Virus record (IMG/VR): IMGVR_UViG_3300009602_002561
Span: 1 to 24,098 of that record
Source: a virus
Taxonomy: Duplodnaviria > Caudoviricetes
Strand: one strand, 5' to 3'
Length of the DNA: 24,098 nucleotides
Shown: piece by piece, positions 6,584 through 23,684 of the stretch
Layout of the letters: the number at the start of each line of letters is the position of its first letter
Position numbering within the stretch: the first letter of the stretch is position 1
Made by a program: the position numbers and the translations under genes
Notes under the pieces: model-generated
What the model was told of the DNA's origin: nothing
What the model saw: the letters and a program-made list of their open reading frames with translations, nothing else
Databases searched by the model: none

Positions 6584-6704
6584 CAAGTGCTATAGATAAT
6601 AGAAGCTGCAGAATGTACATTCATAACCGTTAGAACGTTAACCGCAGCGAGCATTTTCGAGTTTTCTGCGGTCAATGTTTACAGGGATCGGTAGGAGAAA
6701 CCAC

Positions 6705-7013
6705 ATGCAAGCCCAGGTATGCCTGAAGCAAGATGACTCGGTGAGAACCTACGGAATCAGAGCAACAGCGGTGCCCTACCGCGATCAGATCGAGCAGCTT
6801 CTGCCGAGCGTTGAAAGTGTTGTGATCGACTTCGGCAACCGCGACGCTACGCAGTCGTTCGTTGATGAGCTGATCGGAGCTTTGGTTCTTCGACATGGCG
6901 GCCAAGTTATGTCAAAGCTCATCTTTGAAAAGTGTAATGACGAGGTGAAGGCAATCATCCGTTTCGTTGTGCTGGACCGTATTCAGCAGCTCTCCACGCG
7001 CGTGGCCGCTTAG
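6705..7013 (+). CDS. STAS-like (DUF4325-type) protein
   Basis: ATG 6705 preceded by AGGAGA. VVIDFGNRDATQSFVDELIGAL matches the STAS-like 'v.iDF......SF.dE.fg.L' signature. Confidence 0.8.
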   Translation: MQAQVCLKQDDSVRTYGIRATAVPYRDQIEQLLPSVESVVIDFGNRDATQSFVDELIGALVLRHGGQVMSKLIFEKCNDEVKAIIRFVVLDRIQQLSTRVAA

Positions 7014-9823: not shown

Positions 9824-10716
9824 ATTGCCTGCTCCTGTGCTCCGGCTGCCTCGATGGTCGGCCGTACCCAAACGCAGACCGGGCCATCTTCCGTGTCGTG
9901 TATTGAGAAGATGAACCAGTCTTCGCCGTCCGGTTTGCTTGGTTCCCACTTGGAGCAGTCCGGCTCGCCGCTGTCAAAGTAAGCGTCGACAAGCTCTTGA
10001 GGGGCGTCGCCCTCGAAGTCCACGACAGCCAACTCCAGGCCTTGATCGATAAACCATGCCTTAGGAATAGTCTCGTCATCAGTCGCCGGCCACGCGGCAT
10101 GCGTCCAGTGGCCGTGTTGGTCACGCTCGACGTTCACTGCTTGGATTGGCGTTCTGTTGGCTACTGTGCGGGCCGCATGCAGTTCTAGCGCGGCGATCAG
10201 TTGCCGGGCCTCGTGGCGGGCGTCGTTCAAGGCGTGGTGTTTTGTGCCTTCGAACGGGATTGCCTTTTTCGCTTGTGGGTACAGGGCTAGCAGGGTGCGC
10301 AGGTCCCGGTCGTTCCAGAACTTCCACGGCATGGCGAACCCGGAGCGCTGATAGGCACTGCCGAGGATGACGTTGTCGAAGCTGCTGCCGTTGCCCCACA
10401 CCAGCGGCTGATCTTCGGCGATACCGCCGCGGTGCATGAACTCGCTGAGCTTGCCGAGGGCAGTGGTGATGTGGATTGCGGGGAGCTCGCCACTGACTTC
10501 CTGACGGGCCTCTTGGGGTTGTGCCAGCCACCATTGCAGGGTCGGTGTGTCGATTTCGCCGCCCATGGCGAGGGAGGATTCAAGGTCAACGCGCTCATAG
10601 AACTCGTCAACAATCTCGCCCTGTTGCACGCGGACGCAGCCGATCGCGGCGATTGCCGCGTTGGGGGCGGTGCTCATGGTTTCAAGATCGAGCACGAAGT
10701 GGATGGCGTTGATCAT
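9820..10716 (-). CDS. DEDDh 3'-5' exonuclease (DUF5051/RNase AS-like) with extra C-terminal domain
   Basis: VLDLETM, TLQWW, VWGNGSSFDNVIL, RDLRT, HHALNDARHEA motifs. ~110 aa C-terminal extension (RDQHGHWTH...IHDTEDGPVCVW). Confidence 0.88.
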   Translation of the reverse strand: MINAIHFVLDLETMSTAPNAAIAAIGCVRVQQGEIVDEFYERVDLESSLAMGGEIDTPTLQWWLAQPQEARQEVSGELPAIHITTALGKLSEFMHRGGIAEDQPLVWGNGSSFDNVILGSAYQRSGFAMPWKFWNDRDLRTLLALYPQAKKAIPFEGTKHHALNDARHEARQLIAALELHAARTVANRTPIQAVNVERDQHGHWTHAAWPATDDETIPKAWFIDQGLELAVVDFEGDAPQELVDAYFDSGEPDCSKWEPSKPDGEDWFIFSIHDTEDGPVCVWVRPTIEAAGAQEQAI

Positions 10717-11225
10717 GCCACGCGCTCCTGTGTCAGGGCTGGCTGGGCGTTCCAGTAGCGTTCGAACAGGCCGTTTGCGACGGTGGCGAGGTTGCGACAG
10801 CTGGTGGCCTGGTCGTGGGCGTTGAGGTTGGCGAAGGTCTGTGCGGCGAGGCTGAGCTTGGCGGCGATGGCGGTCAGGTGCGCGGCGTCGTCTTCGGTGA
10901 GTGCGACGGCTGAGTAGGTGCGCACAGCGGCCAGGGCGTTGGCGGTCTGTTCGCGCAGGCGGACCAGCTCATCAATGCGCTGGTCCGATTCCTCGGTCAT
11001 GGCTTCGATGGCCTGGGCGGCGTTTAGGCGGCTGAGGGTGTGTTCGTGTTTGACGCGTTCGAGCTGGTGGCGCCAGGCGTCGTACTGTTCGCCATGATTG
11101 GCGTGGATGCGCGCTATGTCGTTGCGTCGGCGGCGCAGCCCTTCGAGGTAGCCAATGCCGAACACGATGGCCATGCCGGCGAAGCCGCCGATGAACGCCA
11201 GAATTTGGTAGGTGGTGAATGACAT
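10713..11225 (-). CDS. Hypothetical protein, N-terminal TM helix + coiled coil
   Basis: Hydrophobic ILAFIGGFAGMAIVFGIGYL followed by RRRR. RBS GGGGAG. Confidence 0.75.
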   Translation of the reverse strand: MSFTTYQILAFIGGFAGMAIVFGIGYLEGLRRRRNDIARIHANHGEQYDAWRHQLERVKHEHTLSRLNAAQAIEAMTEESDQRIDELVRLREQTANALAAVRTYSAVALTEDDAAHLTAIAAKLSLAAQTFANLNAHDQATSCRNLATVANGLFERYWNAQPALTQERVA

Positions 11226-11297
11226 GCTGTGTCTCCCCTGATGCCCGCCGCTGGGCCGTGGTAAGGGGCTGCGGCGGGCAGGTGCTGGTGGTGGTGG

Positions 11298-12134: not shown

Positions 12135-12175
12135 GGTGTTGCTTCCTTGTTGGTAAGTGGGTTTTGCTGCTGCAG

Positions 12176-12523
12176 TCAGACTTCGCGCGCTTTAACCGGC
12201 GCGTCCTCGGGCTTGAACATCTGCGGTGTGGGGTCGTTCTGGAACAGCGTGAGGCCGCTCTCAGTCACGTACATGGGCGTGTCGAGGCTGGTGTCTTCAC
12301 GCTTTTTGCCGCGCTTGGTCGGCTGCACGAAGTCGAGCGTGTGGCTGACGGCCACCTGGTGGCTCTGGCCGATCTGCTTGAGCTTGAACTTGAGCGTGAC
12401 TTCGCCCGGCTTGCCGTGGTCGACGACGCCAGCGGCTACATCGGACAGGGCACGACCTACCTGACTGGCGAATACGCCGGCGTTGAGTGAGCCGAGAAAG
12501 TCATTTACGTCTGTGGGTTTCAT
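12176..12523 (-). CDS. YfdP-like phage protein (partner of YfdQ)
   Basis: TDV.DFL..LNAGVF...LS.VA.GVV...K.G.V, PT.RG...ED...TPMYV...G.LTLF; adjacent to yfdQ. Confidence 0.75.
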   Translation of the reverse strand: MKPTDVNDFLGSLNAGVFASQVGRALSDVAAGVVDHGKPGEVTLKFKLKQIGQSHQVAVSHTLDFVQPTKRGKKREDTSLDTPMYVTESGLTLFQNDPTPQMFKPEDAPVKAREV

Positions 12524-12544
12524 GCTGTGTCTCCCTTTGCTGCG

Positions 12545-12823
12545 TTATGCCGCTTGGTGGGCGGCGGTTGGTTGTTGCTGGTTGTTCGGGTCGAGCGAGT
12601 CCAGCCATGCGGCTAGGTCGCGGAGGTAAACGACGCGAAGTGCCTTCTGGGTTACATCTGTGCGCGTGTAGCGCAGCCGGACGCGGCCCTGGTGAATGAG
12701 GTCGATCAGGTTCTTCTCGCTGCTGATATGGGGCAGGTATTCGGCGCGAACCTCGTCGAGCGGCAGGCAAGGCCTGTCGTAGCGCCGCAGCAATTGCTCA
12801 AAGGTGCTGGTGGCTTTAATCAC
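12545..12823 (-). CDS. Pyocin activator PrtN-family protein
   Basis: T...LL.RY....LPLDEVR.EYLPH...L...I..G...L......QKA.RVV.L.DLA.WLD matches the PrtN family pattern. Confidence 0.8.
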   Translation of the reverse strand: MIKATSTFEQLLRRYDRPCLPLDEVRAEYLPHISSEKNLIDLIHQGRVRLRYTRTDVTQKALRVVYLRDLAAWLDSLDPNNQQQPTAAHQAA

Positions 12824-13185
12824 GCTACTGCCTCCCCGCGCCCCGCCGGGAGGCGCATGCGGACCAGCATGGCGAGCCCGTCGATGGTCTTGCCGGCGGC
12901 GGTGACGATCAGCACGCCGGCCGCATCGGTAACGACGGCGCCATAGGGCCGCACGGCGTCTGTGGTGGGCGTGACGTACAGCGTTTGGCCGGGAGCCAGC
13001 TCTGCCGCGACCACGCGATACACCTCAGCCAGCTCAAGCGCTGCAGGGTCGATAGCCTGCAGGCGCTCAACTGCCTCTCTGGCTGCGCCCAGCATGGCGT
13101 CAGCGCTGACGACGTCCGGGTGGTAGTGAACGATCGGGACCAGCTTGAGCGCGCCGATGGCATCAGTAATGGGGTTAGAGTTCAT
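12820..13185 (-). CDS. Hypothetical phage protein
   Basis: Overlapping start/stop coupling with neighbours. Confidence 0.7.
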   Translation of the reverse strand: MNSNPITDAIGALKLVPIVHYHPDVVSADAMLGAAREAVERLQAIDPAALELAEVYRVVAAELAPGQTLYVTPTTDAVRPYGAVVTDAAGVLIVTAAGKTIDGLAMLVRMRLPAGRGEAVA

Positions 13186-13457
13186 GCGACGGCTCCCTTC
13201 TGAGTCACGGTTTTATCGAGCTGCTTGGCGAGCCAGGCGATGCCGGCTTCGGTGCTCATCACCACCGGATAGTGGCTGTAAGCACCGATGCTGTTGTTCC
13301 AACGAGAGCGGGTGTCCACGAACAGGTAGCCCTTGTCGCGATGCGCACAGGCCAGTTCACCGTTCTGCTGGAGAATGCCCAGCTCACGTAGGCGGCGGCG
13401 GAGGATGCGCGGGCCAATGCCGAGCACGGCGGCGGTAGCGTCGAGGTTCCTGTTCAT
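13182..13457 (-). CDS. Antirepressor KilA-C (ANT) domain protein
   Basis: AAVLGIGPRILRRRLRELGIL...RDKGYL......T.AGIAWLAKQL is the ANT domain pattern. Confidence 0.8.
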   Translation of the reverse strand: MNRNLDATAAVLGIGPRILRRRLRELGILQQNGELACAHRDKGYLFVDTRSRWNNSIGAYSHYPVVMSTEAGIAWLAKQLDKTVTQKGAVA

Positions 13458-13467
13458 GGCGGTGGTC

Positions 13468-14364
13468 TCAGGCTGCAGCCGCGTCGTGCTGAGCAATCCA
13501 GCGCAGTCGCTCGGCTTCGCTCTTCAGCATTTCAAGGCAGGTGTCATAGGCGCCGCATTGCTCGGGGCCGGCGATGATCAGCATGCAGGCGCCGAAGGGG
13601 TGCGGTTCGTGCACAACGATCTCGCCCAGCGCCTCGCGTGCATCTGTTGGTAGCTCAGGCTTGTTCGGGTATGTCTCGTTGTGGCGATTGACGTACCAGA
13701 TGGCCTTCTCGATGTTCTCCACTGGGTTGCCTTTGGCATCGCGGCGGAACAGGTACTTGAAGGCATTCCCCAGGCAGAACGGCAGATACTCGGCAACCTC
13801 GATGCACTCCACGCCGCTCGGGTGGCCGGTGTAGTGCGGTGGGTGGTTGACCATGTCGGCGGTGGGGCTGGGCTCTTCGTCCAGCTTGTTGCGCTGGAGG
13901 TCGTTCCAGGCATTGCGCGCGGCTTCCGCCGTATCGGCACCTTCCAGCGACTGGCAGGCGCTGTACCGGCACTTCACGCCGTGCAGGAACGCATCGCCGG
14001 AACGCAAGGCATAGTCGTAGCCTATGGCCTCGCCTTCGCATCGGCAGCAGGGCAGCAACACGGCAGAGCGCTGCGGTGCTACCTCGGCTGTATCCAGCGT
14101 GCCGTTGGCGATCGCCTCGACCCAGTCAGCCAGGTGCTGCGCGTTGGCGCTATCGCCGCGCTGCAGCGTCATGCTGTGGCGCTGGTTGGCCAGGTAGACC
14201 ACTGCTTCGAGCGGCCCGCCGACCAAGGTGCCCAGCGGCTCGATGGTGATCTCCGGGCGCAGCTCGCGCGCGGGCTGGATGAGCAGCAGGATTTCGGTGC
14301 CGCCCATGCTGGCGATCAACCGAAGGGCGGCAGTGCTGCCGGCTGTTAGGGAATAGGCGCTCAT
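13468..14364 (-). CDS. Fusion: unknown N-domain + Lar-like Zn finger + DUF3310 (SaV-like) domain
   Basis: LLPCCRCEGEA...VKCRYSACQS...AEAARNAWN (Lar-like). DMVNHPPHYT...ECIEV...FCLGNAFKYLFR...KG...ENIEKAIWY (DUF3310). Confidence 0.8.
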   Translation of the reverse strand: MSAYSLTAGSTAALRLIASMGGTEILLLIQPARELRPEITIEPLGTLVGGPLEAVVYLANQRHSMTLQRGDSANAQHLADWVEAIANGTLDTAEVAPQRSAVLLPCCRCEGEAIGYDYALRSGDAFLHGVKCRYSACQSLEGADTAEAARNAWNDLQRNKLDEEPSPTADMVNHPPHYTGHPSGVECIEVAEYLPFCLGNAFKYLFRRDAKGNPVENIEKAIWYVNRHNETYPNKPELPTDAREALGEIVVHEPHPFGACMLIIAGPEQCGAYDTCLEMLKSEAERLRWIAQHDAAAA

Positions 14365-14699
14365 GCTGTCACCTGGGGCTTAGCTGGTGGGCAGTACGGG
14401 AGCAATTGCTCGGCTAGCGCTTCGAGTTCGGAACAGACGGCGCGTACCTGCTCGTTATTGAGCGCATAGGTGTGCGCGTGTCCGTCGAAGTAGATGGTTT
14501 GCTTGAAAAACCAGCTGGCGATGCGCTGTTCACGCGTCATTTCGGCGTACTGCTCGTGTGGCATCGCCTCGCGGATGCGCACGTCAATCTGTGCGTTACT
14601 GCCGTCGATATCGCAGTGGGCGATGTACCGCCCGCCTGCGGTGATGCGCAGTGTCGTTGTGACGATCTGAAGGATGAAGATTTCGATGCGCAGATTCAT
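14361..14699 (-). CDS. Hypothetical phage protein
   Basis: ATGA overlaps on both sides. GGAGGT RBS within the upstream gene. Confidence 0.65.
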   Translation of the reverse strand: MNLRIEIFILQIVTTTLRITAGGRYIAHCDIDGSNAQIDVRIREAMPHEQYAEMTREQRIASWFFKQTIYFDGHAHTYALNNEQVRAVCSELEALAEQLLPYCPPAKPQVTA

Positions 14700-14893
14700 G
14701 CTGCATCACCTCCGAACGGACCGAAGTCTTCAAAGGCGGGCAGGGTGGGTTGCTGCTTAAGTTGCGGGCGGCCGCCTGTGAGCACAATCAGCTGGCCGGT
14801 GGCGCGCTGGATGCTGGCGACGGTGTTGGGGTTGGTTGCCGCTGCCGGGTGTAGGTATACCGGGCAGCGGGTGGCGCTGTGCTGTGTCTGCAT
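14696..14893 (-). CDS. Small hypothetical protein, first gene of the leftward early operon
   Basis: 65 aa (VYLHPAA..NP..VA.IQRATG), directly after the PL-like promoter. Confidence 0.7.
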   Translation of the reverse strand: MQTQHSATRCPVYLHPAAATNPNTVASIQRATGQLIVLTGGRPQLKQQPTLPAFEDFGPFGGDAA

Positions 14894-14925
14894 GACCGTA
14901 ACCTTGGTAAGTGGGTACGGTGTGA

Positions 14926-14954
14926 AATATGTACTAGTGGTTCACTTCAGTCAA
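14926..14954 (-). promoter_or_regulatory. PL-like sigma70 promoter
   Basis: Minus strand TTGACT (14954-14949), 17 bp spacer, CATATT (14931-14926), overlapped by operator sites. Confidence 0.65.
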
Positions 14955-14989
14955 GTACCTAAGGTTCATAAATTAGTACGCCTGGTTCA
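14930..14989. promoter_or_regulatory. Three left repressor operators (OL)
   Basis: TGTACTAGTGGTTCA 14930-14944, AGTACCTAAGGTTCA 14954-14968, AGTACGCCTGGTTCA 14975-14989; same 15-bp pseudo-palindrome as the OR sites. Confidence 0.8.
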
Positions 14990-15004
14990 ATATTGATCCG
15001 CTTA

Positions 15005-15262
15005 TCAGTGTTCCATGGCGCGCCAACGGACATGTACAGTCCCGTCGGGGCGGCGGGTCATGGCGACGCCGTCCGTTTGCTGGATTTCGTCCAGCAGGCG
15101 CTCCCAGTCCTCGGCTCGGTCGTCTGGATGACGCGCTAGGTTCGCCTGGCGTTCGACTTGGGCGCGGGGTGTGGTGATGAGGTGGTTGATGCGGCGTACC
15201 AGGCGGCCATAGCTGGATGCCTGGCGCTGGTGGGTGACGCTTTGGGCCTGAGTCCGATTCAT
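15005..15262 (-). CDS. DUF1654-family protein
   Basis: SSYGRLVRRINHLITTPRAQ...DWERLLDEIQQTDGV...DGTVHVRW. ATG 15262 with AAGGAG RBS. Confidence 0.75.
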   Translation of the reverse strand: MNRTQAQSVTHQRQASSYGRLVRRINHLITTPRAQVERQANLARHPDDRAEDWERLLDEIQQTDGVAMTRRPDGTVHVRWRAMEH

Positions 15263-15276
15263 GGCTTTCTCCTTAC

Positions 15277-15296
15277 TGCTGGATATCCGTACAGTA
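15277..15296. promoter_or_regulatory. LexA (SOS) box
   Basis: Minus strand TACTGTACGGATATCCAGCA contains CTG-N10-CAG (15279-15294), just upstream of the DUF1654 RBS. Confidence 0.75.
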
Positions 15297-15394
15297 ATGA
15301 GGGCGATCGGAAAGTTCAACGAAACGGCGCCTGGTGCGATTTGGTGTGTAAGGTTTTGGGGTAGGTGGCCAGGACGGCCGGGAGGGGGATGCAG

Positions 15395-15419
15395 AAAGCC
15401 CCGCCGAAGCGGGGCTTTT
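15395..15419. terminator. Intrinsic (possibly bidirectional) terminator
   Basis: AAAGCCCCGC-cgaa-GCGGGGCTTT perfect stem with flanking A/T runs. Confidence 0.75.
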
Positions 15420-15621
15420 ATTCAGCCTGTGTCCTTATCGATGCTCCAAGCGCCGCGATCCACGCAGTGGTCCATCAGCCATCCAAGCCCGGTGCGCGTC
15501 CTGCGCCATTGCGGGCAAACTATGATGTAAGCCGGATGGGCTGGATACGGCTTAAACCCGCCACCGCTTGTAGGTGAATGCTTACAGCCGAAACAGTTGC
15601 TTGCTAGGCGAGCGGCCTGAA

Positions 15622-16053
15622 TCAGGCGGCTACGGCTTCAGTCCAGGAATTATCATGCCTCTCGAACACGGCATGCCGACCTACGGTAGGTGCCGACTCA
15701 AAAGTCATAGGACCAAATTTGATATGGATGAACGCCGAGTAGAATGCCCGCATAGCCACATCAGCGGGCCCTGGAACTTCGGCGTCGCCTTTCTTTTCCC
15801 AATTTGCGACCGTTTGCACGTCGACCCTGAGAACGCCTGCCAGCTCTTCCTGCACCAGATCCTGCTCCTTACGCAGAAAGCGGAACTGGTTGCCGGACAT
15901 CGGAGTGTTCTGGCGCACGATGTCAGCGGCAATTGCTCGATGTAGCCCATCCAGATCCTCAAACGAAACACCCTGACCGTAAGGGGTTTCTTCGATCGTA
16001 TAGCCATTCTTCAGAAAGATGCCGGGTAGGCCGGCGCCTTTGTATTCGTACAT
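15622..16053 (-). CDS. HTH (XRE/MqsA/HigA-like) antitoxin
   Basis: MYEYKGAGLPGIFLKNGY N-terminus. HTH FRFLRKEQDLVQEELAGVLRVDVQTVANWEK. Starts just after the DUF4258 stop. Confidence 0.8.
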   Translation of the reverse strand: MYEYKGAGLPGIFLKNGYTIEETPYGQGVSFEDLDGLHRAIAADIVRQNTPMSGNQFRFLRKEQDLVQEELAGVLRVDVQTVANWEKKGDAEVPGPADVAMRAFYSAFIHIKFGPMTFESAPTVGRHAVFERHDNSWTEAVAA

Positions 16054-16055
16054 AT

Positions 16056-16373
16056 CTAGATATCCCAAACCGTAATAGCGAAGAGCTTGCCGGGCTCAGG
16101 GTCGGGCTCTATTGCCGCAACGATGCAAACGACATCTCGCGGCGGAGCCTCGCTCATCAAAAACTTGTAGGTCTTCCGCCCCGCGTCATAGTCAGGGCCG
16201 CTAGTAATCCGACCACGCTGAAGGCACCGAAGAGCCTCCCCTGTCGTGACGCCTCGCTCTGCGAGCCTTTCAAGGCAGTGGCCAGTGAAGATAACGCGAG
16301 CGGAGGTCTGAGCAAGAACGTGAACGAGGTCTTCAACCTGATCTCTAGTCCACAACGGCTGCTTTGCTTTCAT
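16056..16373 (-). CDS. DUF4258 (RelE-like) putative toxin
   Basis: VIFTGHCLERLAERGVT...L.RG.I ... LFAITVW is the DUF4258 signature. Confidence 0.8.
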   Translation of the reverse strand: MKAKQPLWTRDQVEDLVHVLAQTSARVIFTGHCLERLAERGVTTGEALRCLQRGRITSGPDYDAGRKTYKFLMSEAPPRDVVCIVAAIEPDPEPGKLFAITVWDI

Positions 16374-16378
16374 GCTTA

Positions 16379-16432
16379 CCTATAATTTTTATAGGCGATC
16401 CAATCATGATCGGTGCGCCTCATTATCGTCAA
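16379..16432 (-). promoter_or_regulatory. TA operon promoter and palindromic operator
   Basis: CCTATAA-TTT-TTATAGG palindrome 16379-16395 just upstream of the toxin start. Minus-strand TTGACG-18 bp-CATGAT further upstream. Confidence 0.6.
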
Positions 16433-16470
16433 TATATGCTTAATTAAATTCGCTAGCCGGTCGCAAACAC

Positions 16471-16677
16471 TCAGGCCTCTTCCAGCTCGCTCCGCAGGAT
16501 CTGAAGGTCAAGTGGTGCTTCGATGGCTATCTGAGCGCGCCCGCCCTCGATGCCTTTGATGGTCAGCGTGATGCCGTCCAGCAGCAGCTGGGCGAAGAGG
16601 TCGTCGGGGTCGGTGCCGGGCTGGACGCGCAGCGTAACTTGTTCGCCTTCCCGGCGGGTGAGTACCAGATAGCCCAT
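16471..16677 (-). CDS. CsrA/Rsm-family translational regulator, RsmN(RsmF)-like
   Basis: MGYLVLTRREGEQVTL...[inserted helix DDLFAQLLLDG]...ITLTI..IEGGRAQIAIEAP....ILRSEL. This is a CsrA fold with the internal helix characteristic of RsmN and the conserved RNA-binding Arg. Confidence 0.85.
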   Translation of the reverse strand: MGYLVLTRREGEQVTLRVQPGTDPDDLFAQLLLDGITLTIKGIEGGRAQIAIEAPLDLQILRSELEEA

Positions 16678-16704
16678 GGTTTCGCTTCCTTGCGTTGTGT
16701 TGCG

Positions 16705-17394
16705 TTAGATCCTGACCTTGCTCGGCGGCACGATGGCGCCGACAAAGTGGATGTGTTCGATGTCGTCAAAGGCGATGGTGCGCATGTCGTAGATGGGGTT
16801 GACTGACAGCACGCCGACCTCGACATCGTTGGCGTAACCGAGCAGCTTGAGCATGCTCTCACCGTCGCGCAGCCTGATCATGACGTACTCGCCTGGCACC
16901 AGTCGCCCGTTTGGTTCACAGACTGCAATCCAGCCGCTGCGAATTGCAGGGGCCATTGAATCCCCTTTTAAACGCAGCGCGTAGGCGCCTGGGTCACGCG
17001 AGGGGATATCCACGACGCCTTCGCCTTCGTCCAGGGCATGCCAGTAGCCTTCGGCGCCCATCTGGGCGGTGCCGACAATCTTTACTGCGCGATAGGGGCT
17101 GGTTATGTCTGGGCCCGGCTCGACATTCGTTATGTTCTGGCCGGCCTCGGAAAGCATCACGCCTTCATCGAACTGAAGCCACTCGCGGCGCACGCCGAGT
17201 TCCGTCGCGATCGCGAGCATTTTGCTTGGACCCGGAATCGCCTCGGCATTGAGCCATTTACTGGCCGCTTTCGGTGTAACGCCTGCCACTTTTGCCAGGC
17301 GCGCACCTGCTCCCCAGGCGTCTATGCCTTTGACGGCAAGCGCTGCTTTGAGGCGTTTCGAAAAGGCCTGTCGGAAATCGTCATGTTGAACCAT
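16705..17394 (-). CDS. CI-like repressor (XRE HTH + S24 autopeptidase), PrtR-like
   Basis: HTH ARLAKVAGVTPKAASKWLNAEAIP. S24 GDSMAP (Ser) and MLKLL (Lys). The start could alternatively be 17439. Confidence 0.93.
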   Translation of the reverse strand: MVQHDDFRQAFSKRLKAALAVKGIDAWGAGARLAKVAGVTPKAASKWLNAEAIPGPSKMLAIATELGVRREWLQFDEGVMLSEAGQNITNVEPGPDITSPYRAVKIVGTAQMGAEGYWHALDEGEGVVDIPSRDPGAYALRLKGDSMAPAIRSGWIAVCEPNGRLVPGEYVMIRLRDGESMLKLLGYANDVEVGVLSVNPIYDMRTIAFDDIEHIHFVGAIVPPSKVRI

Positions 17395-17458
17395 AGGTTC
17401 AATTTCGCACGCCCTTGCATGTACTTTCAGTTCCGTCATAATATGTACTTCAGGTTCA
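17387..17458. promoter_or_regulatory. Three right operators (OR) and PR promoter
   Basis: TGAACCATAGGTTCA 17387-17401 (perfect 6-bp arms), TGTACTTTCAGTTCC 17420-17434, TGTACTTCAGGTTCA 17444-17458. Plus-strand TTGCAT(17415)-16 bp-CATAAT(17437). Confidence 0.8.
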
Positions 17459-17480
17459 CAGTTTGCCGAGGAGGCTCGTA

Positions 17481-17822
17481 ATGAGCACGATTAAAGAGGC
17501 AGTCCGATCAGTTGGCGGCGCCAAAGCAGCAGCGAAGGCCTGCGGCGTGAGCGTTCGGGCCGTCTACAAGTGGATCGCCGCTGATGCGTTGCCTCGTACC
17601 GAGTACACCGGGGAAACGAGCTATGTGAGTCAGCTAGCGCTCGCTGCTGCAGAACAGGGCAGCCCATTCGACATCAATCGCTTAAAAGCTACCGCCGCGC
17701 CGCGCAAAGCTGGTGAGGCTGCTGAAGCCGTTGTCGTGAATCAGCCTGAAAGGCGTGCTAGCGAGCGTCGCTCGGGCGAGCGCCGCTCTGCAGAGCGTCG
17801 AGAAGCCGAACGTCGAACCTAA
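17481..17822 (+). CDS. Cro-like regulator with C-terminal (ERRxx)5 tail
   Basis: GGAKAAAKACGVSVRAVYKWIAADALPRTEYTGET.Y is a Cro HTH. GAGGAGG RBS. Divergent from CI. Confidence 0.88.
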   Translation: MSTIKEAVRSVGGAKAAAKACGVSVRAVYKWIAADALPRTEYTGETSYVSQLALAAAEQGSPFDINRLKATAAPRKAGEAAEAVVVNQPERRASERRSGERRSAERREAERRT

Positions 17823-17830
17823 CCAATTAC

Positions 17831-18142
17831 ACCCGTCGCACACTTACCACCGCGCAGAGCGGGGCGGCGGTTGCCGGTACCGGGAGGCTTACCACCAGAC
17901 CGGTGCCGGCAGGGCCAGAAAGGCCAGAGACACAACCTGACGCCACGGCGGCAGGTGCAATAGAGGTCGAGAACTGGGGACCCACTTACCAAGCGAAGAA
18001 CCCCAGCCTCGACGGTCCGGTAATCGGTTACCAGCCGACTACCTCAACAGTCAGCCCGCTGAGACACAGCAATGCATAAGCGGGCGACGACTGCTGTAGC
18101 CATAGAGTAGGCAAATGCCCGACGAATGGCTACAGCGTTACC
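17831..18142 (+). ncRNA. Candidate structured RNA / hairpin array between cro and the CII-like gene
   Basis: At least six consecutive stem-loops (e.g. 17872-17911, 17966-18013, 18019-18043, 18054-18085, 18093-18136), four enclosing (C)TTACCA. Confidence 0.5.
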
Positions 18143-18156
18143 GGGGCTTTAAAACC

Positions 18157-18654
18157 ATGAGTCGGAAAGACCTTTTGCCGGCCGCCGGGCCGGTGTTGAA
18201 CACGCGCCAGGCGCTGTACCGCGCCACCCGCGATGCGGTAGGCGGCCAGAACTGCATTGCACTGACGATCGGGATTGACCCGGACGAGCTGAGCAAGCGC
18301 CTGAACCCCACGAACCACCGCCCCATTCACCCTGAGCTGATCGAAGAGATTGTGGCTGCGACGCGTGACCCGCGCCTGCTGGCGGCGTTGGTGCGCCCGG
18401 CTGGTGCGGTGGTGTTCGTGCCCAGGCCGGTGGAAGCAACACGCTCCGCGCTTAAGGCCCTGGGCGAGCTGCTGAAAGCCGAAGGTGAGTTTGTTGGCAG
18501 CCTGCACGCGGGCGCGGCGGACAACGTATGGGAGCACCACGAGGTGGAAACCCTGCGTTACCACGCGAACAAGATGATCGGCGAGATCCTCGGCATCGTG
18601 GCCGGTGCGGAGCAGGCAATGGAGCAAGCGTTGGAGGAGGTGGCTCATGGATGA
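18157..18654 (+). CDS. Phage regulatory CII-like (YmfL/CP76-type) protein
   Basis: MSRKDLLP.AGPVL..RQALYRA.RD..GG....A...G...D.L.KRLNP; position after cro. Confidence 0.75.
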   Translation: MSRKDLLPAAGPVLNTRQALYRATRDAVGGQNCIALTIGIDPDELSKRLNPTNHRPIHPELIEEIVAATRDPRLLAALVRPAGAVVFVPRPVEATRSALKALGELLKAEGEFVGSLHAGAADNVWEHHEVETLRYHANKMIGEILGIVAGAEQAMEQALEEVAHG

Positions 18655-18868
18655 ACACATCATCGAGCTGGCCGAACGGGCCATGGCCGAGCAGTTGCAG
18701 CGCAGCATCGATAACCGCGTGCAGTACCAGGGCGTGAGCCTGACCGAGTGCGAGGAGTGCGGTGACGACATTCCCAAGGCGCGGCAGGACGCGGTGAAGG
18801 GGTGCCGGTTGTGCTTCGACTGCCAGCAGGCTGCTGATCAGCGTGGCAAGGGGGTGCGTCGTGGTTAA
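18647..18868 (+). CDS. TraR/DksA C4 zinc-finger protein (PtrB-like)
   Basis: CEECGDDIPKARQDAVKGCRLCFDCQ. GGAGG RBS. Confidence 0.9.
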   Translation: MDEHIIELAERAMAEQLQRSIDNRVQYQGVSLTECEECGDDIPKARQDAVKGCRLCFDCQQAADQRGKGVRRG

Positions 18869-18887
18869 TGCGCACCCCTCTGCTGTT

Positions 18888-19211
18888 CTAGCCCGCAATC
18901 CTCAGGGCCATCAGCTTGCTGAGGCGCGACAGGTAAGCCTGCATGCTCTCGGCATTATCAGTGGGCACGCAGCCGTCGTTGTACAGATGGATGCGCTCCA
19001 TATTTTCGCGGCCACGAGCGTCCAGCTCGGCGGCGAGCTTTTGCGTGATGCCTTGCAGCTTCACGCTGACCGGGTGCTCTTCGTAGTTCACCCATTCGCC
19101 TGTCATGAACCCTATTGGTTTGTAGTTGCGGTTAAGCATCACGTAGCTGCCGTCTTCCTGGCGGTCGAGGCAATAGGGGAAGTGGGTGTGGCGCAGTTCG
19201 TCCTTCAACAT
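18888..19211 (-). CDS. Hypothetical protein (107 aa), antisense moron
   Basis: ATG 19211 with GGAG RBS. Protein-like sequence (FPYCLDRQEDGSYVMLNRNYKPIG...LYNDGCVP). Fills the gap between plus-strand genes. Confidence 0.7.
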   Translation of the reverse strand: MLKDELRHTHFPYCLDRQEDGSYVMLNRNYKPIGFMTGEWVNYEEHPVSVKLQGITQKLAAELDARGRENMERIHLYNDGCVPTDNAESMQAYLSRLSKLMALRIAG

Positions 19212-19236
19212 GCTTTTTACTCCAGTGAGGTTCCTT

Positions 19237-19470
19237 ATGAACAAGCCGATCATCATCGTTGCGCCGCAGGGTGCGGGCAAGACCAGGCACGCACACGCTT
19301 TGGCGGAGGCGTTCGGGTGCTTGCGGGTTGTGGAAGAGTTCAATGGACAGGTGCCGCTACGACCGGGCGATCTGGCGCTAACGAATTGCGAGGTGGTTGC
19401 CGCGACTACCAAAGGCGCGACGATCATGACACTGGACGCAGCGCTGGCCAGAGTGCAATCGGTGGCGTAG
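19237..19470 (+). CDS. Miniature P-loop-containing protein
   Basis: IIIVAPQGAGKT Walker-A-like motif. GAGG RBS. Only 77 aa. Confidence 0.7.
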   Translation: MNKPIIIVAPQGAGKTRHAHALAEAFGCLRVVEEFNGQVPLRPGDLALTNCEVVAATTKGATIMTLDAALARVQSVA

Positions 19471-19509
19471 AGGCTGCCTTCCCTAGCGCTTTGACGGGAG
19501 GGAAGACCA

Positions 19510-20547
19510 ATGGCTGAGCAAGTCCCTCTCACCCTGTCCGATCTGGCCGAGCTGCTGACCTTTATTCACGCCGATGACCGCGACACCTGGTTGGCGGTGG
19601 CGATGGGTGTGAAGGCGGAGTTCGGTGAAGCCGGGTTCGACAGCTGGAATGCGTGGAGCCAAACCGGAGACGGTTACAACTCGGCGGATGCGAAGAGCGT
19701 GTGGAAGTCGTGCCGCAAGCGTGGCACCGGCATGGGCACGGTCATCAAGCTGGCGAAGGACAATGGTTGGTCGCCGCGCCGTGAACCGATCACTGCAGAA
19801 GAGAAGCGCAGGCTGAGTGCCGAGGCTGAACAACGCCGCGCGGTGCGGCAGGCTGAGATTGAGGCCGATGAGGCGCGGCTAGGCGTAATGCGCGAGGCGG
19901 TTGCCCAGGCCTGCGAACAGATTTGGACGAAGCACTGCAAGCCCGACGGCACGAGCCCCTACCTTGAGCGCAAGCAGGTAGGGGCTTTTGGTGTGGGCTT
20001 CTTTCATTACACGGTGGTGCTCGCCATCGATGACGCTCGCCAGCGGTGTGACGTGTGGGTGGGCAGTGAGACGCGGACCTTCTTCGACAATCTGCCGAAG
20101 CCGAGGCCGGATTCGATCAGCTTCATGATGTTCAAGGCCGGCACCCTTGCAGTGCCGTTGCGCGATGCGGCGGGCAAGTTGTGGAGCCTGCAGGCAATCA
20201 ACGAGCAGGGCACGAAGCTGTTCCCGAAGTACGGGCGCAAGGGTGGTTGCTTCCATGTGCTGGGCGAGTTGGCCGGTGCTGAGTTCGTGGCTGAGGCCGA
20301 AGGCTATGCGACGGCGGCCAGCGTGCACATGGCGCTGGACTGGCCGGTAGCGATGGCGGTCGACTCGGGCAACCTCGTTGCGGTGGCGCGTGCGCTGCGG
20401 GCGGCCTGCCCGGACGCGAAGCTGGTGGTCTTTGGCGACGATGACCCAGCGGTGAAGAACAATCCGGGCCGGATGAAGGCGGAGGCCGCTGCCGCTGAGG
20501 TGGGTGGTTTTGCGTTGTTCCCGGTGATGCCAGGGGAGGCTGCCTGA
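19510..20547 (+). CDS. DNA primase N-part (PriCT-2 + Toprim)
   Basis: ADDRDTWLAVAMGVK.EFG......W..WS (PriCT-2); SPYLERK; AEGYATAAS and FGDDD (Toprim). Confidence 0.9.
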   Translation: MAEQVPLTLSDLAELLTFIHADDRDTWLAVAMGVKAEFGEAGFDSWNAWSQTGDGYNSADAKSVWKSCRKRGTGMGTVIKLAKDNGWSPRREPITAEEKRRLSAEAEQRRAVRQAEIEADEARLGVMREAVAQACEQIWTKHCKPDGTSPYLERKQVGAFGVGFFHYTVVLAIDDARQRCDVWVGSETRTFFDNLPKPRPDSISFMMFKAGTLAVPLRDAAGKLWSLQAINEQGTKLFPKYGRKGGCFHVLGELAGAEFVAEAEGYATAASVHMALDWPVAMAVDSGNLVAVARALRAACPDAKLVVFGDDDPAVKNNPGRMKAEAAAAEVGGFALFPVMPGEAA

Positions 20548-22208
20548 TGGATTGGAATGATCTGCATGTGAGCTGGGGGCTTGAGGCGGTACAGCAGCAG
20601 CTGTCGGCTGCGCTGGCTGCTGGTGAGCCTTCCCCGACCCCATCCGAGGCCGAAGCCGCGGCGCCGGGCGGCTCCTCCGACAACGGGGGGCAGGGGGCGG
20701 GGCTGACCAGTGAACAGCTGTTGCGGCGCTTTGCTCTGGTGGAAGGCACCACGCAGGTGTGGGACCAGGACAAGAAGACCGCGATGAAGAAGACGGCCTT
20801 CGAGGCGCTGGTGAGCAAGCCGCTGGCGAAGGCCTGGCTAGATGACACTGCGAAGAAGCTGATAGGCGCCGATGCGGTGCGGGAGATAGAGCAGGCGCGG
20901 CGGATGGCGGGCAAGAAGGCCGGCGCGTTGGGTATGCCGCCGACTGAACGCTATGTGTATATCGACGGCACCAAGGATGTGTGGGACCGCGAGAAGAAGC
21001 GGCGCATTCCGGAAGGTGCGGTGAAGATGGCGCTGGGCGATGCCTATGCGTTGTGGCTGAACTCAGCCGAGCGGCGGACGGTGGATGTGGACCACATCGT
21101 GTTCGACCCGGCGATGCGGTTGGACCCTGCGGTGTACATCAATACGTTCGAGGGTTTGCCGCTGGAGCCGGTACGGGACGATGAGGCGTGCGCGAACCTG
21201 CGTTGGTTGATCTCATTCCTGTGCAACCACGATGAAGAGGCCTTTGACTGGCTGAAGAAGTGGCTGGCGTACCCGCTGCAGCACCCGGGCGCGAAGATGG
21301 ATACGGCAGTGCTGGCCCATTCGATCACCGAGGGCTCCGGCAAGTCGTTGCTGTTTGCTGATGCGTTCGGGCAGCTGTTCGGGCCGTATGCGGCGACGGT
21401 AGGGCAGACGCAGTTGGAGTCGTCCTTTAACGCATGGCAGAGCCGCAAGCTGTGGGCGGTGTTCGAGGAGGTCGTGAGCCGCGACCAGCGATACAACCAG
21501 GTGGGCAAGATCAAGCATCTGATCACCGGCAAGACGGTGCGGATGGAATCGAAGTTCATCAACGGCTGGGAAGAAGCCAACCACATGAACGCGGTGTTCC
21601 TCTCGAACGAGATCCTGCCGTGGCCGATCAGTGACAGCGACCGCCGCATGCTGGTGGTGTGGCCGCAGGAGACGTTGCCGCCGGCTCGGCAGAAGGCAAT
21701 CGGTGCGGAGTTGAAAGGCAACGGGGTGGCGGCACTGTATGGCTGGCTGCTGTCGTTGGACCTGGGCGAGTTCGACCAGCGCACGCGGCCACCGCACACG
21801 GATGCGCGGCAGCGCCTGGTGGCGTTGAGCCGGGCAGGGTGGCAGACCTTCCTTTATCAATGGCAAACCGGTGAGCTCGGGTTGGACCTGTGGGGCGCGT
21901 GCCTGTCGACGGACCTGTATGCGTTGTTCCTCGAGTGGTGCCAGCGCAACAAGGAACACGCGATGAGCCAGACGAAGTTCAGCCTGTTCATCAGTGCTGA
22001 GGTGGAGAAGACGCGGTCGATCCCCTGGACGAATGGCAGCAATCGAAGCTTTGGGGCGTTCTTCTTCCCCAGCGATCCGGACTCTTCCCTGCCCCCATCT
22101 CTGACCGCAGCTGCGCTTGGCCAGCACGTGGCGGAGTGGCGCGGGAAGGCACGCAAGGCGGGCTGGGACGTGGACGGGTGGGACCACCTGAAGGCGGCTG
22201 CAGCATGA
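20547..22208 (+). CDS. Primase-associated SF3/D5-like helicase (DUF5906-type)
   Basis: WLAYPLQHPGAK, Walker A EGSGKS, Walker B AVFEEV, motif C FLSNE, DRR. Starts with the DWNDLH motif. Confidence 0.9.
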   Translation: MDWNDLHVSWGLEAVQQQLSAALAAGEPSPTPSEAEAAAPGGSSDNGGQGAGLTSEQLLRRFALVEGTTQVWDQDKKTAMKKTAFEALVSKPLAKAWLDDTAKKLIGADAVREIEQARRMAGKKAGALGMPPTERYVYIDGTKDVWDREKKRRIPEGAVKMALGDAYALWLNSAERRTVDVDHIVFDPAMRLDPAVYINTFEGLPLEPVRDDEACANLRWLISFLCNHDEEAFDWLKKWLAYPLQHPGAKMDTAVLAHSITEGSGKSLLFADAFGQLFGPYAATVGQTQLESSFNAWQSRKLWAVFEEVVSRDQRYNQVGKIKHLITGKTVRMESKFINGWEEANHMNAVFLSNEILPWPISDSDRRMLVVWPQETLPPARQKAIGAELKGNGVAALYGWLLSLDLGEFDQRTRPPHTDARQRLVALSRAGWQTFLYQWQTGELGLDLWGACLSTDLYALFLEWCQRNKEHAMSQTKFSLFISAEVEKTRSIPWTNGSNRSFGAFFFPSDPDSSLPPSLTAAALGQHVAEWRGKARKAGWDVDGWDHLKAAAA

Positions 22209-22220
22209 GTACGCTCAAAA

Positions 22221-22518
22221 GTGTGTTGGGTTGTGTTGGGTTGTGTCGGGTTGGTTTTGCGAACCCAACACAGGCGCAGGCCTCGAACGGCGCGGCTTGG
22301 CGGGTGCTGTGTGGGGTGTGTTGGGTTTGGCATCGCGCGCGCGCATGCGTTGCCGTTTCGCTTGTTCCTTCTGACGATGAAGGAAAAATTCTCTATGCGA
22401 GGACTGAAAAACCCAACAAACCCAACACACTCAACACAGATGCTTTGAAAGCCTTGATCTGTATGGGTTTTAGCTGTGTTGGGTTTGTGTTGGGTTGGGG
22501 TTTTTGTGTTGGGTTGGG
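22221..22518. repeat. Probable phage replication origin: TGTGTTGGGTT iterons in direct and inverted orientation
   Basis: Roughly a dozen copies of TGTGTTGGGTT or AACCCAACA(CA) (e.g. 22222, 22232, 22242, 22262, 22317, 22410-22438, 22475-22518) around an A/T-rich patch (~22380-22412), directly after the helicase. Confidence 0.75.
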
Positions 22519-22538
22519 TGCGGCGGGGGAGAAGAGCC

Positions 22539-23027
22539 ATGATTGAGGCAGTCGAGGCGTTGATGGTGCATTGGGCCGAGCGGTGCCGTGGTGGGCTTGG
22601 CGGGCCGGGCGCGGGAAGTTCGTCGCCGCTGGCGGTGGCGATGCAGTACGGGATGATCCCTACTGGCAGCCGTGCCACGATGGGCTTGGCTGGAGCTGAG
22701 GATCGGGCAGCCGAGGAAGTTGATGCGGCGATCGGCAGCATCAAGCAGCTGGGCCTGGCGCAGGACCGTAAGCTGGCGAAGGCGTGGCGGTTGGCGGGCA
22801 ACACCAGCCGTCCGCCGTTCTGCCTGGAGACGCAGTTGGTGAAGCTGGCGATGGTGCGCTATCTGCCGGACCCGATCCCGACCGTGGCACAGCAGATGCG
22901 GCGCGTGCGGATCGGCTCTGAGCGTACCTATCACGAGCGAGTGCAGAAGCTGCACGAGCTGGTTAGGGCTGAGCTGGAGCGCCGTGCACGGATGCAGCGG
23001 GTGCATGGCGGGCGTTACGTCGCGTAA
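22539..23027 (+). CDS. PA0613-like late regulator (Q-like antiterminator candidate)
   Basis: MIEAVEALMVHWAE...LAVAMQYG...EEVDAAI...LA..RYL...TV..QMR.V.I.SERTY..RV..LH with a C-terminal HTH; lies between origin and holin. Confidence 0.65.
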   Translation: MIEAVEALMVHWAERCRGGLGGPGAGSSSPLAVAMQYGMIPTGSRATMGLAGAEDRAAEEVDAAIGSIKQLGLAQDRKLAKAWRLAGNTSRPPFCLETQLVKLAMVRYLPDPIPTVAQQMRRVRIGSERTYHERVQKLHELVRAELERRARMQRVHGGRYVA

Positions 23028-23039
23028 ATGGCGGTCTGG

Positions 23040-23090
23040 GATTCCGGCCGGATTCCGCACAGATTCCGTTCTGATTCGGCCCTGATTCGG
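23040..23090. repeat. Five GATTC(C/G)G repeats with exact 11-bp period
   Basis: GATTC at 23040, 23051, 23062, 23073 and 23084. Confidence 0.85.
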
Positions 23091-23109
23091 CTGTGGCTTT
23101 AACTCACTG

Positions 23110-23138
23110 TTTACGCCTCCGCAGTTGGGGGGTACAAA
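23110..23138 (+). promoter_or_regulatory. Putative late promoter
   Basis: TTTACG (23110-23115), 17 bp spacer, TACAAA (23133-23138), downstream of the 11-bp repeats. Confidence 0.5.
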
Positions 23139-23233
23139 GCGCATAACAGGTCAGAGCAGCGCCAAGGCGATGACCGAAACGAGCCTTACTTGCTGTGTCA
23201 GGCACAGACCGGAACCCCCGCCGGTCACCCCTC

Positions 23234-23266
23234 AAAGCCCCGCCATCGTGCGGGGCTTTGTCTTTT
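23234..23266 (+). terminator. Intrinsic terminator in late leader
   Basis: AAAGCCCCGC-catcgt-GCGGGGCTTT followed by GTCTTTT. Confidence 0.75.
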
Positions 23267-23293
23267 CTGGCTGATGGTGTCGCCGTCGCCTTT

Positions 23294-23320
23294 GCCCGTC
23301 GCCATGCGGGCTTTTTTATT
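23294..23320 (+). terminator. Second intrinsic terminator in late leader
   Basis: GCCCG...CGGGC stem followed by TTTTTTATT. Confidence 0.7.
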
Positions 23321-23339
23321 CGTGCCGAGGAGGCCGTGC

Positions 23340-23684
23340 ATGTCGACAGAACAGCAGGTTCAACAGTCGCTGAGCGATCTTCCGTTGTGGCTGCTGCTGT
23401 TGATCGGCCTGGCTGGGTTGGTCGGCGAGATGCGCCAGGCTGACAAGGCAGGCCTCGTGGCTGGTGAGCTGGTCAAGCGTGTAATGGTGAGGTTCGGTTC
23501 GTCCGCGCTGTTCGGCATGGCCACGCTGATGTTCGTCTACTGGCTGAAGCAGGACTACATGCTGGCCGGTGCGCTGGGTATTGGCGTAGGCCTGGTCGGT
23601 GCTGACATGGCCGGCGCGTTGTATAGCCGCTATCTCGCCAAGCGGGTTGGGCTGGGTGAGGTGCCGCCGGTCCAGCCGCAGTGA
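23340..23684 (+). CDS. Phage holin (PA0614/LydA-like)
   Basis: LSDLPLWLLLLIGLAGLVGEMRQADKAG...GAD...LY.R..AKRVG with three hydrophobic segments. GAGGAGG RBS. Confidence 0.85.
   Translation: MSTEQQVQQSLSDLPLWLLLLIGLAGLVGEMRQADKAGLVAGELVKRVMVRFGSSALFGMATLMFVYWLKQDYMLAGALGIGVGLVGADMAGALYSRYLAKRVGLGEVPPVQPQ

Follow-up and report, generated by a model that had tools for sequence, protein, structure and literature searches.

The window analysed here, the whole stretch of 24,098 nucleotides, is the left half of an integrated temperate prophage of the Stutzerimonas type. The nearest relatives of its CII were found in a Pseudomonas sp. contig (100%) and in Stutzerimonas stutzeri (98%), and a trpE-like gene, named by eye from its translation, lies near the prophage (entry 36-1514 and 12545-23684). 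An integrase is encoded at 4320-5498. The leftward early operon (PL) runs from 14893 to 7527 and contains 15 genes, including antirepressor-like, excisionase-like and YfdP/YfdQ genes. The PL promoter, TTGACT-17-CATATT, lies at 14926..14954 on the minus strand, with three operator-like repeats (14931-14989) that match two at 17421-17458. The first PL gene (14696..14893, minus strand, phrog_13491) encodes a protein of 65 aa with no known function; it was present in all 40 of the 40 clustered loci, and an Atlas search with phrog_13491 found no named family. The switch region consists of a gene for a CI-like S24 repressor (16705..17439, minus strand), a cro-like gene (17481..17822, plus strand; phrog_35, E 2.5e-12) and a CII-like gene of the CP76/YmfL type (18157..18654, plus strand; PF06892, phrog_101). 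A putative late-gene activator occupies the Q position (22539..23027, plus strand, phrog_4300). Its product has a weak PA0613-family match, and the Atlas lead was Phage_antitermQ in 11% of one cluster. DksA-like, primase/helicase and HNH genes and a holin-like ORF are also found in the window.

Other features of the map were noted in passing. Two cargo genes beside the integrase (5567-7013, plus strand) gave weak PADLOC DrmA matches (E 2e-5 and 4e-6) and a phrog_3364 match; a defence or signalling pair is possible. A 214-aa ORF at 18888-19532 on the minus strand opposes the early right operon and had no match in Pfam, PHROG, NCBIfam or PADLOC. The C-terminal tail of Cro (17745-17822) carries repeated ERR units. 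Many relatives in group A have similar Arg-rich tails on Cro proteins that are unrelated, and others lack them.

The spacer between cro and cII is common to the cultured phages PG1 and vB_PstS-pAN. The initial annotation of this DNA had described a row of hairpins there and proposed it as a candidate regulatory RNA. All six of its stems were recovered (17833-39/17864-70, 17872-83/17900-11, 17966-79/18001-13, 18019-27/18035-43, 18054-60/18079-85 and 18093-103/18126-36), together with its loop motifs, CTTACCA at 17843, 17888 and 17985 and TTACCA at 18028; GAGACACA was present at 17927 and 18061. The first CTTACCA had been taken for a hairpin loop, but the fold places the copy at 17843 in an internal bulge and not in an apical loop. 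A seventh hairpin, absent from that annotation, was found at 17936-17955. The plus strand from 17810 to 18170 folded at -147.7 kcal/mol (z -5.5, 0/100 shuffles as low), and 16 of 46 predicted pairs covaried on this strand among 14 sequences. The hairpin array is real and conserved. A six-frame translation revealed no conserved reading frame in the spacer, where alignment A2 contains indels, and Rfam gave no match for the spacer, only weak sub-threshold ones (DUF805b, 13 bits versus 35.6).

Two words recur in the array: CUUACCA, called the 'a' word here, and GACACAGCA, the 'b' word. Both were overrepresented in the window: CTTACCA occurred 6 times versus 1.1 expected, GACACAGCA 5 times versus 0.35, and the 13-mer ACCCACTTACCAA 3 times versus 0 (0/100 shuffles in each case). 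As had been stated, the same motifs sit in left-operon leaders (copies at 14905, 12151 and 11259, and at 14880, 12523 and 11225), always on the left operon's own sense strand. Outside the spacer the words occurred only there, apart from one complement of the b word at 23191-23199. The loops are not of the GGA type, again as described; they read CUUACCA/GACACAGCA on the plus strand and UGGUAAG/UGCUGUGUC on the minus strand.

G-U-compatible mismatches had been taken to point to RNA. On the plus strand they were found mainly in the last hairpin, in the cII leader (18093..18136, plus strand), where G-U outnumbered A-C by 23 to 3 in group A and by 17 to 1 in group B, but not in the two hairpins beside it, where the mismatches are A-C on the plus strand and thus G-U pairs on the minus strand. 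Given its bias to G-U on the plus strand, the last hairpin is probably a cII-leader structure that overlaps, in the DNA, the predicted antisense promoter described below. Two further motif hairpins (17833..17911) lie past the terminator-like stem, with 5 G-U to 11 A-C in H1 and 5 to 1 in H2, neither significant. Such strand counts are themselves biased, as a positive control leaned toward A-C (42 versus 20). RNAalifold consensus folding was about equal on both strands, and the single-sequence minimum free energy, computed on both, showed that the plus strand folds well too. Taken with the evidence below, the strand chosen for the array was most likely the wrong one.

At the 3' end of the spacer alignment, the invariant columns read TGGCTA and A...TA on the plus strand; seen from the minus strand, they are TAGCCA and TAnnnT, with 17-18 bp between them. 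TGGCTA was invariant in 14/14 aligned spacers while its hairpin pairing partner varied, and A282, T286 and A287 of alignment A2, which are the -10 box columns, were also invariant. The element in the window is sigma70-like, TAGCCA-17-TACTCT (18132-18104, minus strand), with the -35 box TAGCCA at 18127..18132 and, 17 bp from it, the -10 box TACTCT, of the TAnnnT type, at 18104..18109. Of 40 promoters, 36 had TAGCCA. The element was located 53-55 nt before the cII ATG in 40 of 44 distinct spacers, a set that leaves out duplicates, two truncated loci and one mis-anchored locus; in the remaining 4 it was farther off, behind a duplicated array. Among independent loci found via the first PL gene, it was present in 99 of 102 distinct spacers, while no control offset gave more than 9 of 102; of the 90 spacers absent from the earlier set, 87 had it. 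We also used 40 genome regions picked to include weak homologues, some of which repeat earlier loci; 38 of them had both genes, and these include distant phages with other words and the -35 sequence GTGCCG. The element was found in 33 of these 38 versus at most 3 at controls, the five misses having another distance. It scored 7/12 against the consensus and was not flagged by a generic promoter scan; therefore, the case for a promoter rests on positional conservation and not on the consensus score. Some members have near-consensus elements (9/12 in L284 and L285; TTGCGC-17-TATGAT in L080), and the element persisted next to very different CII N termini (L082, L108-L111). Inverted repeats upstream of the -35 box, examined by eye, varied in sequence and spacing, and an SD hairpin would fit them too. 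Six loci (L009, L010, L066, L067, L077 and L294) have a further copy of the array on the cII side of the antisense promoter, between it and the gene, which on the minus strand places the copy upstream of the promoter.

The predicted antisense RNA is about 170 nt long (17926..18097, minus strand, ends inferred; z -5.5, 0/200 shuffles). Its 5' hairpin (18045..18096) presents a near-constant b loop, UGCUGUGUCUC (18071-18061), and folded at -29.0 kcal/mol on the minus strand versus -20.8 kcal/mol on the plus strand; in its first helix, the pair at columns 10-56 was G-U in 13/13 sequences and an A-C mismatch on the plus strand. Next is the first phage-specific a hairpin (18019..18043, loop CUGGUAA), whose 9-bp stem is unbroken on the minus strand and is broken by an A-C mismatch on the plus strand. 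The second a hairpin (17966..18013), with CUUGGUAAGUGGGU (17993-17980), had 9 of 12 pairs covarying and contains 14-nt and 13-nt complements to two left-operon starts. The RNA would end in a terminator-like hairpin with a U-rich tail (17926..17955), which is weak in the window: the stem is conserved, with a z of only -1.3, and the tail reads UUGUGUCUCU versus UUUUUUG in L004. A terminator scan called no terminator at 17926-17955 in the window, nor in L004. The hairpin and U tail 170 nt downstream of the promoter are conserved in group A, and terminators are weak or absent in several relatives.

In the minus-strand alignment of 13 sequences, 95.4% of the cells were paired and 19 of 39 pairs changed on both sides, statistics matched by 0/500 shuffles that ignore relatedness. 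The consensus fold of this strand was four hairpins in a row, and the smallest members, of about 80 nt, had just one hairpin of each kind, b and a. Covariance model R1 matched group A only, with 13 strong matches in 24 sources, 10 of the 13 being the model's own input sequences or a near-identical copy. A 241-nt metatranscriptome contig, which carries no strand or end information, covers 17834-18071 (two runs, share 0.09 and 0.06). No description of the predicted spacer RNA was found in a literature search that lay mostly outside subscription journals; the accessible part of the PMC2864571 supplements gave no relevant match to the motif strings, and small RNAs are not mentioned in the accessible part of the report on Lodos (PMC11846083).

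The left-operon copies of the words were then considered with respect to translation starts. A start was counted as uncoupled when it followed a gap of >20 nt or lay at the leader, and 4 of the 15 left-operon genes qualified. All four uncoupled starts were complementary to the predicted RNA over 11-14 nt, whereas all 11 coupled starts were complementary over at most 8 nt. In the first PL gene, the leader and initial codons (14880..14916, minus strand, as for all four sites) contain a 14-nt a-site and a 10-nt b-site. A b-site with an 11-nt complement lies between the SD sequence and the AUG of the YfdP-like gene (phrog_204; 12523..12533), and an a-site with a 13-nt complement lies just upstream of the SD sequence of the DUF2303 (YfdQ) gene (12150..12162). 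The fourth, ORF 11225-10713, has an a-site hairpin and a b-site between the SD sequence and the AUG (11225..11265), complementary over 7 nt and 11 nt, respectively. In relatives, the left-operon a-site likewise lies in a hairpin just upstream of the SD sequence, and the b word follows either between the SD sequence and the AUG or within the initial codons. In the RNA the b loop comes before the a loops (5'-b...a-3'), and in the targets the a-site comes before the b-site (5'-a...b-3'); the two orders are compatible. Whole-molecule cofolding, a method whose model does not extend to kissing loops, gave -7.8 to -12.3 kcal/mol for the four targets and -14.1 and -10.5 kcal/mol for two coupled starts, so the targets were not ranked first.

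The a word differed among phages. In a first survey of 80 loci, found with CII as the query (228 loci overall), the a words included CUUACCA, CUCACCA, CCUACCA, CUCUCAC, CUCUGAC, CUCUAAC, CUCUACA and CUCUAUU, among others, and distant phages added CUCUCCACCACAGAG, CUCUUAC, CCCUCCACGGU and CUCCAACAG. Within one spacer the word was largely uniform, and it was matched in the same phage's left operon, almost never on the opposite strand. In the loci found via the first PL gene, words on the sense strand of the left operon outnumbered those on the other strand by 213 to 19 and by 203 to 14. The match between leader and spacer word extended over 11.8 nt for cognate versus 9.4 nt for noncognate combinations in 53 representatives (p 2e-4) and 10.5 versus 6.9 nt in the 38 regions (p 1e-4), with permutations that ignore relatedness in both cases. 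A leader-spacer complement of at least 8 nt was found in 35 of the 38 regions, and the cognate spacer was best or tied in only 15 of the 38. A site within a coding region read CUU in PG1 and CUC in pAN, each fitting its own spacer. In the whole PG1 genome, all copies of CUUACCA were in the spacer or the left operon, which leaves the minus strand of the spacer as the sole 7-nt antisense source there. A third genomic copy of the a-word complement was sought and none was found for CUUACCA in the window or in PG1; in pAN and Lodos, copies of the a-word complement were scattered in coding regions on both strands. Some phages (L074, L069) had mixed a words at distal sites.

The single b-word complement outside the spacer lies in a second predicted RNA, a short late-promoter leader (23147..23270, plus strand) whose b loop reads UGCUGUGUC (23191-23199). 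This leader also has a C-rich loop and, at 23233-23260, a terminator. It lies behind the Q-position gene and is preceded by a promoter-like TTTACG-17-TACAAA at 23110-23138, read by eye. Short direct repeats, GATTCCG/GATTCGG, occur between the Q-position gene and this promoter (23036-23090), a place where relatives have other repeats. The loop sequence UGCUGUG was invariant in 20/20 aligned copies; of 71 new loci, 66 contained it and none contained the sense word. In a clade whose targets read CAGCCA, the loop reads UGGCUG, and in L284 and L285 it is the complement of the a word and not of the b word. In a prospective test it was not cognate in L006/L080 and had a central mismatch in L011. The late leader matched its own PL leader over at least 7 nt in 13 of the 18 regions (of 38) that could be parsed; in these 18, the loop matched over 7.7 nt in cognate versus 6.6 nt in noncognate combinations and 6.4 nt in a same-sense control. 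The late leader RNA probably acts on the same sites as the spacer RNA through its shared b loop, and we regard the support for it as a second effector as moderate. Elsewhere, 10 nt in the start region of the exonuclease gene (10716-10740, minus strand) are complementary to the loop and stem of the late leader.

A conserved backward promoter-like signal, together with loops that mirror the tags of four gene starts, makes it likely that the spacer encodes an undescribed small RNA. We consider it probable that this is a minus-strand, multiloop antisense RNA of about 170 nt that would block translation at the four uncoupled starts, and, with similar confidence, that it represents a real, conserved and apparently undescribed gene for a multitarget antisense RNA. 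The predicted sigma70-type promoter, inside the last hairpin, would drive its transcription from 18097 to about 17926. The phage-specific a loops would pair first with the hairpin loop upstream of the SD sequence, and the near-constant b loop would then cover the SD-AUG spacer, as the a' and b' loops of C4 RNA do. Since each of the other 11 genes is coupled in translation, a block at these four starts would, by polarity, shut the whole operon and help to hold or set up lysogeny. Upon induction, PR transcription across the spacer would interfere with the convergent promoter and titrate the RNA. The PR (cro-cII) mRNA, a perfect complement of the predicted RNA, could thus titrate it, and the sponge role that had been proposed for the array could return in this other form. 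More tentatively, and with the balance somewhat against it, a family of temperate Pseudomonadaceae phages might lock its whole left operon translationally with two small RNAs, from the spacer and the late leader, with the lytic PR mRNA serving as an anti-RNA that undoes the lock upon induction and the a loop as an immunity code.

The initial annotation had favored a plus-strand sponge or antiterminator read by a protein, with phage RsmN, the Cro tail, another early protein or host Nus factors as partners. No phage protein was found to track the loop words. Fourteen families were compared with the loop-word classes (CsrA/RsmN, Cro, PrtN-like, YfdP, YfdQ, Ant, phrog_13491, phrog_8889, CII, DksA-like, Q-position protein, helicase, HD and DUF3310), and none separated the classes throughout; several were 97-100% identical between phages with different words. 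The PrtN-like protein looked promising as a reader by identity and failed on alignment. One form of this idea treats the array as a decoy for an RNA-binding protein whose operators are the left-operon sites; it would account for the same-sense repeats in loops and for the good folding of the plus strand. It also gains from the YfdP classes, which follow the group B words, and from 5 columns of the Q-position protein and 2 of CII that separate CUU from CUC phages, although these columns fail in the P. aeruginosa-type group. However, a CsrA/RsmN-like gene was found in only 4 of the first 80 loci and, by tblastn, in 4 of 228, a set that includes truncated loci, and a Cro like that of the window in only 5 of 80. 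Identical PrtN-like, Ant-like and Q-position proteins are paired with different words, and L057, L058 and Lodos keep the sites despite a YfdP shortened to 43 aa and the lack of YfdQ. Lodos is described as an active prophage in PMC11846083. The decoy also leaves the conserved minus-strand promoter unexplained, and a spacer that serves as the template of a minus-strand RNA explains the same-sense repeats without any protein; we consider the decoy quite unlikely. Antitermination fares worse still. The tightest co-variation does link the PL leader with the spacer after cro, positions that correspond to nutL and nutR of lambda, but no boxA-like match with at most one mismatch to the consensus was found in 17823-18156 or 14880-14925. 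The sites also sit at SD-AUG spacers of internal genes, the first PL gene proteins are near-identical (97%) in phages with different words, and no N-like protein tracking the loop sequence was found among the relatives compared. Nut-like signals on both early transcripts are therefore extremely unlikely.

Two other alternatives keep RNA pairing and reassign the RNA. The late-promoter leader could be the only effector, with the plus strand of the spacer as its target or decoy, as might be suggested by its conserved b loop, by the change to UGGCUG where targets read CAGCCA, and by the a-word complements of L284 and L285. The late loop is unchanged between CUUACCA and CUCACCA phages, though, and so cannot explain the co-variation of the a word; with the noncognate cases L006/L080, the mismatch in L011 and only 13 of 18 own-leader matches, we find this very unlikely. 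The remaining alternative, which we rate as unlikely, is that the minus-strand promoter is a CII-activated establishment promoter (equivalent to pE/PRE) and that a long transcript, running on to cI, has the hairpins as its 5' leader. Pairing with the left operon would then take place only during establishment, and the RNA would not be a standing lysogen small RNA. The position and direction fit, as a leftward promoter-like element lies at the cII 5' end; CII here belongs to the CP76 family, the -35 box is weak, and the terminator is weak or lacking in several relatives. On the other hand, L284, L285 and L080 have near-consensus elements, the promoter persists despite very different CII N termini, and group A conserves the hairpin and U tail 170 nt downstream. 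In phage 186, CII activates pE to express CI (PMC8538670). The predicted promoter may be constitutive or may, like pE of 186, depend on activation by CII; an establishment promoter would alter the timing and not the pairing mechanism.

The antisense RNA proposed here most resembles C4 of phages P1 and P7. PMC5320573 describes C4 as a three-stem RNA of about 77 nt, cut by RNase P from a larger transcript, in which a variable a' loop pairs upstream and a conserved b' loop covers the ribosome-binding site; C4 represses antirepressor synthesis and underlies heteroimmunity (PMC12197685). Like C4 (RF01695), the predicted spacer RNA has variable a and conserved b loops complementary to an upstream site and to the ribosome-binding site. 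In contrast to C4, its hairpins form a linear row in which the number of a loops ranges from one to several, it has its own predicted promoter convergent with PR, at which its predicted 5' end lies, and it matches four starts of a different operon. The C4 covariance model gave no match at E <=5 in the window, at E <=10 in 17700-18250, or at the gathering score in four relatives. The fold was four hairpins in a row and not the three-stem cloverleaf of C4 with its tetraloop, a' and b' loops, and there was no tRNA-like match. By analogy, then, the spacer element would work like P1/P7 C4 but is set apart from it by both model match and fold. Phage immunity based on loop-target pairing of RNA is also found in the P4 CI and N15 CA RNAs, which are processed from the target transcript and act through termination; the spacer RNA, by contrast, is on the opposite strand, and its tags are at translation starts. 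OOP, which acts on cII mRNA, and Sar, which acts on the ant start, are short switch-region antisense RNAs with their own promoters (PMC12197685 and PMC7067206). Each of these lambda and P22 RNAs has a single target, and OOP overlaps the cII 3' end, whereas the spacer RNA lies upstream of cII and has predicted targets in trans, at a distance of 3-7 kb, and a loop code specific to each phage. The element at 23147-23270 resembles StxS and lambda 6S-type RNAs in being a short regulatory RNA of the late region. RNAs of this type originate from a terminated late promoter. StxS targets stx1AB and rpoS (PMC12197685), while the loop at 23147-23270 matches the phage's own early gene starts. With CsrB/RsmY/RsmZ the array shares several hairpins with a repeated loop motif, but it has no GGA loops, its motif changes between phages, and a CsrA-like gene is rare among the relatives.

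Separately, an RsmY-like RNA with several GGA motifs was seen in the window (RF00195, 40 bits, E 1e-6, below gathering), with matches only at about 15318-15509 (entry 15395-15509 and 16471-16677, both minus strand). It lies downstream of the CsrA/RsmN-like gene, with a DUF4258 and HTH toxin-antitoxin-like pair between them, and had blastn matches in 10 of 228 loci, none among the 4 with a CsrA-like gene. The PrtN-like, S24 repressor, DksA-like, PA0613-like and holin-like genes parallel the pyocin control region of P. aeruginosa, and tailocin loci may have kept remnants of the RNAs predicted here.

Known phage antisense RNAs guard one message, whereas the spacer RNA would guard an operon via a shared, co-evolving tag. 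If the two-RNA arrangement is true, both small RNAs would read private tags only at uncoupled starts, and the variable a loop would be a second, repressor-independent immunity code, predicting which phages cross-inhibit each other independently of CI. The spacer RNA would give the lysis-lysogeny switch of a widespread phage family a further, RNA-based level of control and would provide a compact, retargetable two-loop translational repressor. Both PG1 and vB_PstS-pAN, which are in culture, carry the code. In a sample of 401 genomes from the family to which one host genome belongs, 51 had the marker gene; in a sample of 401 from the class, only that host genome had it, apart from 4 weak matches.
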